From the NCBI GenBank assembly GCA_041694835.1, contig JBGFRZ010000005.1:1-16492 (forward strand): a stretch of DNA of 16,492 bases, written 5' to 3'. The stretch is from Ignavibacteria bacterium. Its GTDB lineage: Bacteria; Elusimicrobiota; Endomicrobiia; PHAN01. Shown one piece after another: positions 13,716-16,492 of this stretch; within the stretch, counting starts at the first letter, position 1; the number at the start of each line of letters is the position of its first letter. The translations under genes and the position numbers were made by a program. The notes beneath the pieces are model-generated. The model was not told the origin of the DNA and did not search any database. It saw only the letters and a program-made list of their open reading frames with translations.

Positions 13716-14029
13716 TAGGACGCGGACTTTCGCAGATGAGTTTATAGTTGCTTTAATCTGCGTTTATCAAAGTTGTTTCTGCGTTCATCTGCGTTCAATT
13801 ATTTTTTAGGACGCAGATTTACAGGATTATCGCAGATTAAAAACTTTACCGCGAAATCACGAAAATTAGAAATCACAAAATTCTTTACAAGTATTTTCGT
13901 GTTTTCGCGCTTTCGTGATTCAAATCTTTTTTCTTCTGCGTTCAAAAATAAAAAAGTGGTTGTAGAAATAGGACGCGGATTTTCGCAGATGCAGTCCCGA
14001 TTTATCGGGACGAGAATGAGCGAAAATAC
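13716..14029. repeat. Cluster of short-repeat palindromes (GGACGCRGA..TCGCAGAT / ATCTGCGTT; CACGAAA / TTTCGTG)
   Basis: taggacgcrga occurs three times (~13716, ~13807, ~13969) with complementary tctgcgtt units between. An inner hairpin pairs cgcgaaatcacgaaaa with ttttcgtgttttcgcgctttcgtgatt. Confidence 0.8.
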
Positions 14030-14082
14030 AATGTAAACACTTGCTGATTATGCAAATCTCAATAGTATAAAAAAACCCTCAA

Positions 14083-14157
14083 TGCCGAGCACTGACCTAC
14101 TCTTCCGTCCCGACATGCGGGAAGGTACCATCGGTCCTGGAGAGCTTAACTTCTCTG
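14083..14157 (-). ncRNA. 3' half of a split outer 5S rRNA-like gene
   Basis: 41 nt (14094-14134) are identical to the intact 5S (14207-14247). The flanking helix strands differ from the intact copy but complement the 5' half at 14345-14387. Confidence 0.85.
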
Positions 14158-14196
14158 CCCGCCACGCACCATTTCTCATGTACTCAGGAACACAAA

Positions 14197-14315
14197 CCCT
14201 GGCATCGACCTACTCTTCCGTCCCGACATGCGGGAAGGTACCATCGGCTCTGGAGGGCTTAACTGCCGTGTTCGGAATGGGAACGGGTGTGACCCCTCCG
14301 AAATAGACACCAGGA
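14197..14315 (-). rRNA. rrf: 5S rRNA (intact, inner copy)
   Basis: UCCUGGUGUC...CACACCCGUUCCCAUUCCGAACACGGCAGUUAAGC...CCGAUGGUAC...GAGUAGGUCGAUGCCAGG; helix I closes; ~119 nt. Confidence 0.97.
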
Positions 14316-14344
14316 TTTCTATCCCTGAAAATGGTGCGGGGTGA

Positions 14345-14387
14345 GAGATAGGAAGAGGTGTGACCTCTCCGGAATAAGCACTCAGCA
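14345..14387 (-). ncRNA. 5' half of a split outer 5S rRNA-like gene
   Basis: UGCUGAGUGCUUAUUCCGGAGAGGUCACACCUCUUCCUAUCUC is collinear with the inner 5S (..UAUUUCGGAGGGGUCACACCCGUUCCCAUUCC). Confidence 0.85.
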
Positions 14388-14467
14388 TTCAGGGTTTTTT
14401 AAAGCGATGAAACCCCTGAAGAGGATGTCCTGAATTGTTCGGAATTACTGCGGTGGCGATGCAAGAA

Positions 14468-14629
14468 TTAGGATTTTCTTTCCTTTATTTCTTTGAGTAA
14501 AGAGGAAATCTGCACCAATTTCAGCAACGCAAAAATCGAACAAATAACGCCGATTATGCTGACCATCGTCATAACCGTAAAGATGTTCGACAACCAGAAA
14601 ATCACCGGATCCAACTCCATCATCTCCAT
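14468..14629 (-). CDS. 53-aa small single-pass membrane protein in the 23S-5S spacer
   Basis: GGAGG (14636-14640) 6 nt before ATG. MEMMELDPVIFWLSNIFTVMTMVSIIGVICSIFALLKLVQISSLLKEIKERKS*: acidic N-terminus, hydrophobic segment, basic C-terminus. Confidence 0.65.
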   Translation of the reverse strand: MEMMELDPVIFWLSNIFTVMTMVSIIGVICSIFALLKLVQISSLLKEIKERKS

Positions 14630-14647: not shown

Positions 14648-14768
14648 AGTTTAGAGTTCGGTAGCGGGCGAATTGCTATTCGCCGTATTCCCCTCTATTA
14701 AGAGGGGACAAAGGGGTGTGTTTCGTGGGATAGCAATCCCACCGCTACATAACTCTCAACTCTAAACT
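14648..14768. repeat. Nested palindrome immediately downstream of 23S
   Basis: agtttagagtt/aactctaaact (with aactctc aactcta heptamers), gtagcgg/ccgctac, attgctat/atagcaat, inner tcccctct-atta-agagggga. Confidence 0.8.
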
Positions 14769-15719
14769 GAATTAAATGATGTGGTCAAGACAAACGGACT
14801 ATTAGTATGGGTTAGCTTAATCCTTTACAGGACTTACACCTCCCACCTATCAACCCTGTAGTCTACAGGAGTCCTTCAGGGAAATCTTATCTTGAGGTTA
14901 GCTTCTCGCTTAGATGCTTTCAGCGATTATCTGAACCGCACTTGGCTACCCGACTAATGCTCTTGGTAGAACAGCCGGAACACCAGAGGTGCGTTCATCC
15001 CGGTCCTCTCGTACTAGGGACGACTCCTCTCAAATTTCCTACGCCCACGGTAGATAGAGACCGTACTGTCTCACGACGTACTGAACCCAGCTCACGTACC
15101 CCTTTAATTGGCGAACAGCCAAACCCTTGGGACCTACTCCAGCCCCAGGATGGGATGAGCCGACATCGAGGTGCCAAACTCCGTCGTCGATATGGACTCT
15201 CGGACGGAATAAGCCTGTTATCCCCGGGGTAGCTTTTATTCGTTGAGCGACGGCATTTCCATTCACAACCGCCGGATCACTAGGTCCTGCTTTCGCATCT
15301 GTTCGACTTGTTTGTCTTACAGTTAAGCTCCCTTATGCCCTTGCACTCTAAAAGCCGATTACTATTCGGCCTGAGGGAACCTTTGAACGCCTCCGTTATC
15401 CTTTGGGAGGCAACCGCCCCAGTTAAACTGCCCACCTAACCCTGTCCCACGCCCTGATAAAAGAGTCGTGGTTAGAACCGCAGTATTGAAAGGGTGGTAT
15501 TTCACTGTCCCCTCCATCCCGACCAGAATCGAGACTTCAAAGGGTCCCACCTATACTACGCATCCAAGACCGTAATTCAAGATTAAGCTACAGTAAAGCT
15601 CCACGGGGTCTTTTCGTCTTACCGCAGGCAACCTGCGTCTTCACAGGTACCACAATTTCGCCGAGTCTCCTATTGAGACAGCGCTCTCTTTGTTACGCCA
15701 TTCGTGCAGGTCGGAACTT

Positions 15720-15952
15720 CATTAACACTTAGATTTCCCTAAGTTTTAGACTATATCTTCACCCCCGATGAAATTGGGGGGACGGCGTGTAGTCGTTACA
15801 GGGTCACTCCGATGTTATGTCAGAGGACTTCCCTCGGTATTATCATAGAGTCGGCATAAGATGGCTTCCTTAAACCATCGCTCATTAGATTCCACCGATA
15901 CAGCCGTTTTACTAATAGCGCGTTACCGCGCTATTCGGGCAAGTTTCCGTTT
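15720..15952 (-). ncRNA. Group I intron after 23S U1951 (L1951), 233 nt, no ORF
   Basis: Follows exon U and ends in G (UUAAUG). P1: UCGGGU/GCCCGA with U-G at the splice site. P10: AACUU/AAGUU. P3: ACGGC/GCCGU. P7: GACUA/UAGUC. S element GAAGAUAUAGUC. Confidence 0.95.
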
Positions 15953-15972
15953 ACCCGACAAGGAATTTCGCT

Positions 15973-16205
15973 CATGTGTTTTCCAATATTACTATTGGCA
16001 TGGACTATATCTTCATCCCGATGTTATATCGGGAGCCAACGTGTAGTCTCTACGGGGTCGATTACGACTTCCCTCGGTATTACCCTTTTCCACATAGCCA
16101 ACCAAGGTTGGCAACTACATTGTAATGTGGAAAATTGGGCTTCACCGATACAGTTGGATTCGATACGCCGTTACCAGCGTAAAGGGCTTTGAAATTCCAT
16201 TCAAA
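15973..16205 (-). ncRNA. Group I intron after 23S U1931 (L1931), 233 nt, no ORF
   Basis: Follows CCUAAGGU and ends in ACAUG. P1: GGU/GCC with U-G, extended by UUUGAA/UUCAAA. GGAAUUUC can pair with 3' exon GAAAUUCC. P3: CCAAC/GUUGG. R element GUAGAGACUA, S element AAGAUAUAGUCC. Confidence 0.95.
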
Positions 16206-16248
<43 letters not shown>

Positions 16249-16262
16249 GACATCAGTGCTTC

Positions 16263-16399
16263 ACACACCAGTTCGCCCATACGAACTCACTGATAAGTTA
16301 GAGGGTAGAGGGTCGACGGTAAATGGGAAATGGAAAACCTTTCTTTCACCTTCTACCTTCTACCTCGCTCAGTGAGTCCATAAGGACGAACCAGCGCAT
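16263..16399 (-). other. Long hairpin insertion (IVS or expansion segment) at the tip of 23S helix 68
   Basis: Replaces the ~8-nt apical hairpin near E. coli 1870. UGCGCUGGUUCGUCCUUAUGGACUCACUGA pairs with UCAGUGAGUUCGUAUGGGCGAACUGGUGUG. Confidence 0.85.
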
Positions 16400-16492
16400 T
16401 GACACCTCCGCTTGACCTTCCGGCACCGGGCAGGCGTCAGACCCTATACATCATCTTGCGATTTCAGCAGAGTCCTGTGTTTTTGTTAAACA

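Follow-up and report, generated by a model that had tools for sequence, protein, structure and literature searches.

Introduction

Intervening sequences of bacterial 23S ribosomal RNA (rRNA) are removed by RNase III, and the pieces that they separate are not re-joined. Here we describe a related situation at the end of an rRNA operon, in which a complete 5S rRNA gene lies within loop C of a second, split 5S sequence, in contig JBGFRZ010000005.1 of GenBank assembly GCA_041694835.1 (Ignavibacteria bacterium; GTDB lineage Elusimicrobiota, Endomicrobiia, PHAN01). The window is this whole contig (C31), 16,492 nucleotides (nt) in length, from a 1.9 Mb genome (G000) of 89 contigs that is 97% complete. 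Like a 23S intervening sequence, the locus has a stem-bounded insert in an rRNA gene, a host with RNase III and a predicted excision that leaves two paired pieces, and the long flanking duplex (24 pairs) and host RNase III that mark inserts of the RNase III type are both found here. It differs in that the excised part would be a functional RNA and the split host probably a by-product. The nested unit is a real gene-within-gene of a recurrent layout, termed type 1 below, and we consider it probable that the inner 5S is excised from it while the outer copy acts as a stem or terminator.

Also close to this locus are the 5S expansion segments of Stepanov and Fox (RNA 2021; PMC7812874), whose accessible text reports 5S inserts of 13-109 nt at 17 sites. 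Both their inserts and ours are self-paired modules in the 5S core, often placed there in the region that runs from loop B by way of helix III to loop C; a site at positions 42-43 is listed, and remnant 5S copies at rRNA operon ends are described. By contrast, the segments covered by that text are helices of 13-109 nt and never a 5S gene, the expanded gene is taken to be either the product itself or a pseudogene, and the hosts are Clostridia-type orders, Alteromonadales and Halobacteria. Compared with this description, our locus does have a self-paired module, a 24-pair stalk, with an intact core fold around it (the outer copy forms the 5S Y-shape), but the insert measures 183 nt and holds a complete 5S, outside the class of 13-109 nt segments without a gene of their own. 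As far as its accessible text goes, the same study proposes that expansion segments spread by homologous recombination and discarded sequences with 'internal sequence duplication' (PMC7812874). The original prediction knew of no arrangement of this kind, and our literature search likewise found no published description of a nested, split or fragmented 5S, although the supplements of Stepanov and Fox may hold such cases.

Inserts in the rRNA genes of bacteria of the candidate phyla radiation (CPR) form a third point of comparison. In the portion of Tsurumaki 2024 (PMC11270868) available to us, no insert of 100 bp or more is reported in any of 645 CPR 5S genes, and nesting goes unmentioned in the corresponding portion of Tsurumaki 2022 (PMC9297842). 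The two situations are alike in that rRNA genes are invaded, mostly in CPR bacteria, and the 23S gene of our locus also carries two group I introns; they differ in that no CPR 5S insert of 100 bp or more appears in that account (PMC11270868, same portion) and in that the insert described here matches no intron family at E up to 10 and has no coding frame. In CPR bacteria, then, 5S genes had been reported free of large inserts. Two aspects appear to be new here, namely that the host is a diderm from outside the CPR and that members of different phyla have the junction in common. Standard annotation detects the inner copy only, so the layout is invisible in databases, and split outer copies could be mistaken for pseudogenes, tandem genes or assembly errors.

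A complete 5S gene lies within loop C of an outer 5S

The rRNA operon lies on the minus strand, where the 3' part of the 23S gene is followed by a spacer of about 390 nt and then by the nested 5S unit. Its features, in the order of transcription, are as follows.

14781..16492, minus strand: 23S rRNA gene, 3' part, same operon (Rfam; judged native to the lineage)
14387..14400, minus strand: closing stem, 5' strand (AAAAAACCCUGAAU), which extends outer helix I and pairs with 14070-14083 (minimum free energy (MFE) and centroid folds)
14345..14386, minus strand: outer 5S 5' half, 42 nt, with helix I, loop A, helix II, loop B, helix III and the 5' part of loop C
14315..14344, minus strand: stalk 5' arm, 30 nt, beginning with the conserved type-1 junction motif (12 nt, 14344-14333, UCACCCCGCACC)
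14197..14314, minus strand: inner complete 5S, 118 nt (RF00001, 88.1 bits; nhmmer, 96.8 bits)
14162..14196, minus strand: stalk 3' arm, 35 nt, ending in the conserved junction motif (13 nt, 14174-14162, AAAUGGUGCGUGG)
14084..14161, minus strand: outer 5S 3' half, 78 nt, opening with CGGGC and continuing through the 3' strands of helices III and II and the helix IV/V arm to the 3' strand of helix I
14069..14083, minus strand: closing stem, 3' strand (AUUGAGGG), plus seven T, 15 nt, a terminator-like operon end

The nested order that the original prediction had read from this DNA (5' half, linker, complete 5S, linker, 3' half) was reproduced by script on the minus strand, with some adjustment of detail. 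The outer 5' half is present as proposed at 14387-14345 but starts at 14386, one base off, and the insert does sit in loop C but is 183 nt long (14344-14162) rather than about 187 nt, being made up of a 30-nt arm, a full 5S and a 35-nt arm. Nor does the insert replace the GAA of loop C, as had been claimed; instead, CGAAC of the outer loop C is altered to CGGGC (AA changed to GG), and the insertion point is best read between ..CCUAUCUC and CGGGC, a site which we take to be positions 42/43 in E. coli numbering. CGGGC is able to pair with CCU/CCC across loop C. A terminator-like site comprises 14095..14079 and the T-run, which stands directly after the outer copy.

The inner copy matches RF00001 at 88.1 bits against a cut-off of 38, over model positions 1-120, and is the only match to this family in the whole genome. 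In place, the outer copy gives no contiguous RF00001 match, because the 183-nt insert interrupts it, and its 3' half alone scores 14.9 bits (E 3.2). We also used, in place of a covariance model, a profile hidden Markov model (HMM) built from 10 same-phylum 5S genes with the scanned genome's own excluded. With it, nhmmer matched the outer 5' half in place at HMM positions 5-38 (12.1 bits, E 0.001) and the outer 3' half at positions 48-115 (40.0 bits, E 2.4e-12).

The split outer copy retains a 5S fold

Joined in silico, the two outer halves give a 120-nt sequence that aligns column for column with 5S genes and is 81% identical to the inner copy and 64-74% identical to the 10 same-phylum 5S genes. 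Against the phylum HMM this joined sequence scores 63.4 bits over its full length (E 1.3e-19), compared with 3.3 bits for the best of 200 shuffles. Pairing was scored on the Rfam consensus pairs, since MFE folding, whether applied to the joined outer halves or to the inner 5S by itself, gives no textbook 5S fold. The pairing of helices I, II and III that had been proposed for the outer copy is borne out, in that all 24 consensus pairs of these helices form. Between inner and outer copy 14 of these pairs are unchanged, two have changed on one side and are still paired, eight have changed on both sides and are still paired, and none is broken. The 23 differences between the copies are distributed accordingly, with 18 falling in the 48 paired positions and five in the 70 others. 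Several outer pairs are compensated at positions that are invariant across 10/10 of the compared phylum 5S genes, which indicates that the outer helices changed while staying paired. Loops A, B and E are retained in the outer copy.

The wider unit folds in keeping with this picture. The 332-nt unit has a folding z of -5.96, and 0/100 shuffles fold equally well; outer helix I and a further 10-bp extension form its closing stem in both the MFE and the centroid structure, and the outer halves co-fold into the 5S Y-shape. The suggestion that differences between the helices limit mispairing agrees with the pairs that can form across copies, which number 16/22 for the outer 5' with the inner 3' half and 18/22 for the inner 5' with the outer 3' half, against 22/22 for each correct pairing.

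The claimed identity of the helix IV/V arm was confirmed by script, and at 41 nt it is the longest block identical in both copies; it looks like the product of gene conversion. The family helix IV signature is present in both copies, and the nearest match to the middle of the outer copy is the 5S of a class-mate. No helix I similar to that of the outer copy, which could have pointed to a foreign origin, was found among the loci compared. At the 23 differing columns, the 5S genes of family-mates agree with the inner copy at 16 and with the outer copy at two.

From the paired changes it had been argued that the outer fold is under selection. The compensated changes in three helices are real, but they do not show selection for a 5S-like product, as two once-working 5S genes would differ by compensated changes anyway.

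The insert is a stalked unit with a conserved junction

The two arms of the insert form a stalk of 24 pairs, the duplex energy of which is reached by 0/500 shuffles. We define the type-1 layout as one in which loop C is interrupted, between ..CAUUC and CG[GG]C, by an insert whose arms begin UCACCCCNCACC and end GGUGNGGGG, the latter then followed by CGGGC; it is found at the scanned locus and at six further full loci, as well as in the partial copies L093, L095 and L031. Over the seven full loci the junction cores have mean identities of 79% and 97%. The stalk 13-mers beside the junction, by contrast, have 30-31% identity, which is about random, yet they are complementary. Stalks across type-1 loci comprise 14-24 pairs, with 0-1/500 shuffles as good, and the variable junction base N covaries, being G-C in general and A-U in L090. 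Such conservation points either to selection acting at the junction or to a recent common ancestor of the arms; the junction is a candidate recognition element.

Intron covariance models gave no intron family at E up to 10 within 13950-14500, and the insert holds no protein-coding frame of its own. No free-standing 5S gene with type-1 arms was found among about 130 loci, which are a biased sample.

The layout recurs in other bacteria

The original prediction had proposed looking for the same nesting in other genomes, and the same loop C site with the same junction was found in at least seven other assemblies, from other organisms and mostly CPR bacteria. These came from two scans. A species-level scan (a single genome for each species) for pairs of 5S 3'-half motifs at a spacing of 90-120 nt returned 71 stretches, which were sorted by script and by reading into 45 tight tandem pairs, nine scaffold joins across N, about 13 nested-like stretches and about four chance matches; nearly all of the nested-like stretches are labelled CPR bacteria. 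A scan of metagenomes with the 3' junction returned nine stretches, seven of which are nested 5S loci; the other two, L094 and L099, were set aside as chance matches without 5S context. The type-1 loci are listed here.

Full loci: the scanned locus; L098; L047 (= L096 sequence); L063 (= L101 sequence); L090; L100; L097
Separate record: L095, a few bases different from L100
Partial type-1 match: L093

Nesting is also seen with other junctions. A second type has its insertion, still in loop C, three bases beyond the type-1 site (L034, L062, L068, L093), and another places it in the region of loop B (L026, L048), where as many as three layers occur.

The recurrence bears on whether two 5S variants of a mixed population could have been misjoined by the assembler. 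The contig does come from a fragmented genome (89 contigs), and the four sequencing runs aligned to the locus (X1, X3, X12 and X19, out of 24 of which none holds more than 0.05 of 78 sampled words) give no cover of either junction; they match only the conserved 5S core (~14238-14313; X19 14118-14173) and a short spacer piece, with loose ends on both sides, come from other organisms and bear neither for nor against the assembly. However, the junctions consist of non-5S sequence that is complementary between the two sides, the same junctions occur at the same loop C position in at least seven assemblies from other organisms, and a misjoin at the shared 41-mer would give an order other than the nested one. 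Because the conserved, covarying junction recurs across assemblies, an artefact is excluded as far as such comparisons reach: the nested unit is in our assessment no misassembly, and we give the artefact next to no chance.

Two side observations came from the same scans. The 45 tandem loci, which fall within L022-L092 (e.g. L023, L029, L036), have two complete 5S genes head to tail, about 3-10 nt apart; many of their hosts are gut Clostridia-type genomes labelled Acutalibacteraceae, Oscillospiraceae and similar, and helix I differs between the copies. Separately, an element of about 100-210 nt recurs as an insertion within the helix IV/V part of the outer 5S 3' halves of L047, L077, L062, L068 and L026; in these CPR loci it starts GAGGCGCGAG.. 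and contains ..GCAAGACC.. and ..GAAAGGUGUACAG..CUGUAAG.

The host is a diderm lineage that appears to have gained the layout

The scanned genome encodes Omp85/BamA and its phylum-mates reach 5 Mb; by its gene content, the host is a diderm outside the CPR. No match to uL30 (PF00327) was found in the 97%-complete genome, in which bL25 and Omp85 were found, and the missing uL30 was set aside as a sign of a CPR host given that Omp85 is present.

The 23S gene of the operon is 90.6% identical over 955 nt to that of a same-family genome (L006) and is, on this comparison, native to the lineage. Two group I introns lie in it at 15727-15962 and 15982-16215 on the minus strand, with Rfam scores of 69.7 and 54.4 bits, and a third insert, of about 175 nt, occupies 16237-16411 (minus strand). 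None of these three inserts is present in the L006 genome, nor is the long spacer. In short segments, the introns resemble the Moranbacteria locus L063, with matches at 79-80%.

No second 5S piece was found in 40 relatives of the scanned genome, and no type-1 junction in 400 other genomes of the same phylum; five junction hits in the phylum outside the scanned genome were rejected as chance, since they lie in coding-looking sequence and a reversed control pattern gave a similar number. These comparisons suggest that the nested layout was gained in this lineage, with arms shared with CPR bacteria.

Outer copies are resident in one Moranbacteria group and decay at related loci

Which of the two copies is the intruder was asked in a Moranbacteria group within the CPR, where we searched 40 relatives of the genome holding L063 for its outer copy. 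Two of them (G407 and G414) carry an uninterrupted 5S that matches the L063 outer halves, with the same flanks and the same upstream gene; in G407 the halves match at 96% and 94%, with the matches 4 nt apart. Among the relatives' loci inspected, 11/13 are plain and 2/13 nested. In the Moranbacteria group the outer copy is thus, by comparison of loci, the resident gene and the inner copy the insert, because G407 and G414 hold the uninterrupted version between the same flanks. The L063 inner copy and proximal stem resemble free-standing 5S genes of other relatives.

Outer copies at related loci have often suffered breaks, mismatches or further inserts, yet their closing helix I persists. One nested Moranbacteria relative (G431) has an outer copy with a hairpin in the conserved GUUAAGC region; in the other (G425) the outer IV/V arm is gone, and a perfect 15-bp helix I is retained and followed by a T-run. 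The outer halves of L097 mismatch each other, the outer copies of L047 and L090 have further inserts, and L031 is an orphan outer 3' half only. The inner copy is the sole RF00001 match in 4/5 of the other genomes with nested loci. Collectively, the outer copies elsewhere favour a constraint on pairing, as in a processing or terminator stem, over the two-piece 5S or the protein-binding mimic that had been put forward among possible roles.

This pattern bears on the proposal that the outer copy is selected in its own right, forming a two-piece 5S-like particle after the stalk is cut and serving as a second 5S or as a decoy or store for uL18/bL25, its helices having diverged to avoid mispairing with the inner copy. 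We regard this as unlikely, even though the retention of all 24 pairs with eight double changes, the weaker cross-pairing (16/22 and 18/22), the compensated changes at pairs invariant in 10/10 phylum 5S genes, the kept loops A, B and E, the presence of a bL25 gene and the conservation of the junction across phyla all speak for it. Set against these points, other genomes have outer copies with deletions, mismatches or insertions; the identical 41-nt block is suggestive of gene conversion, by which loops would be kept without selection on the outer copy; and the insertion site is reported as uL5-blocked in the accessible text of Stepanov and Fox, where insertions at 42-43 are described as 'blocked by protein uL5' and such genes as unlikely to assemble (PMC7812874). 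The remark, made with the original prediction, that uL5 could not bind the outer copy fits this report, and the block as described there argues against a ribosomal role for the outer copy.

Predicted processing and origin of the nested unit

With the gene-within-gene reading, the working 5S is probably the inner copy, and the split outer copy probably a remnant, displaced but still able to fold. In the mechanism that we propose, the 23S gene, the spacer and the nested unit of about 330 nt would be co-transcribed, with the transcript ending at the T-run, and the unit would be closed by outer helix I and its extension. The stalk of about 24 bp would then be cut, most likely by RNase III, and the ends trimmed, such that the inner 5S is freed and enters the ribosome. 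The outer halves would stay paired as a by-product, a closing, processing and terminator stem, and would not form a second ribosomal 5S, because uL5 sits at the loop from which the stalk emerges, and because outer copies elsewhere decay. The genome encodes RNase III (TIGR02191, 233.5 bits, at G000:C30) and RNase E/G; RNase M5 was considered as a processing enzyme and dropped, as it has no match in the 97%-complete genome. Processing, the fate of the outer RNA and the route by which the cassette arrived are inferred from sequence. How the correct fold is chosen and excised from one transcript with two 5S folds is a testable question.

RNase III ordinarily accepts duplexes of 24 bp as substrates. 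This property and the presence of the enzyme weigh against a version in which the RNA of about 305 nt stays uncut, with one copy in the ribosomal 5S site and the other protruding as a giant expansion segment. Segments as long as 109 nt are indeed known in 5S, and one was observed within a ribosome, that of Halococcus morrhuae, according to the accessible texts of PMC7812874 and PMC7530397. Our insert is nearly twice the size of the largest known segment, however, and its site is said to clash with uL5 in the former text (PMC7812874), so that we find the uncut RNA highly improbable.

As to how the gene-within-gene arose, the arms and inner 5S may constitute a mobile, self-complementing cassette with a fixed loop C site that passed from CPR bacteria to this diderm lineage, a possibility that we hold tentatively and would place somewhat short of an even chance. 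Under it, a single-copy essential gene would tolerate insertion since the cassette brings a working spare, and the second loop C junction type three bases on and the loop B insertion would be sister types elsewhere. Should the cassette prove mobile, it would show how insertion into an essential RNA gene present in one copy can be tolerated and would represent rRNA-gene traffic between CPR bacteria and an unrelated phylum, beside the group I introns gained by the same operon; it would amount to a novel type of selfish element, one that takes the place of genes for structured RNAs from inside them.

Several observations weigh against the picture of an inserted inner copy and a leftover outer one. 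The outer copy here is flawless (24/24 pairs, eight of them compensated, and five differences in 70 other positions), which also fits continuing selection on a 5S-like product. In the scanned genome the roles of the copies may be the reverse of the Moranbacteria case: the 5S of family-mates resembles the inner copy (16/23) over the outer (2/23), and the genome, alone in its genus, offers no empty site or orthologous comparison. The scanned locus fits two histories, one in which the outer copy diverged faster with its pairs kept and one unlike that of Moranbacteria. The strongly conserved junction suggests a further function, and the cassette encodes no enzyme for movement.

Further features of the spacer and upstream regions

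The spacer between the 23S gene and the nested 5S holds a 53-aa open reading frame (ORF; 14468-14629, minus strand) with a GGAGG motif a short way upstream of its start and one hydrophobic stretch, for which no Pfam match was found. It has no clear likeness to a conserved small membrane ORF ending ..F(F/S)(A/S)PVI(N/K)AF that lies directly upstream of the 5S in L113-L119, L123, L126 and L127; the latter was rejected as a part of the cassette, as Moranbacteria-like genomes carry it whether or not their 5S is nested. Between this ORF and the outer copy, at 14436-14445 (minus strand), stands the 10-mer AUUCCGAACA of 5S loop C, a 5S scrap or a chance match. Nearer the 23S gene, 14661-14748 (minus strand) forms a branched hairpin with the closing stem GUAGCGG/CCGCUAC, and a piece of about 33 nt (14687-14719) recurs with at least 90% likeness in contigs of three groundwater runs, where its flanks are unlike those here; this piece may be a small repeat or mobile piece.
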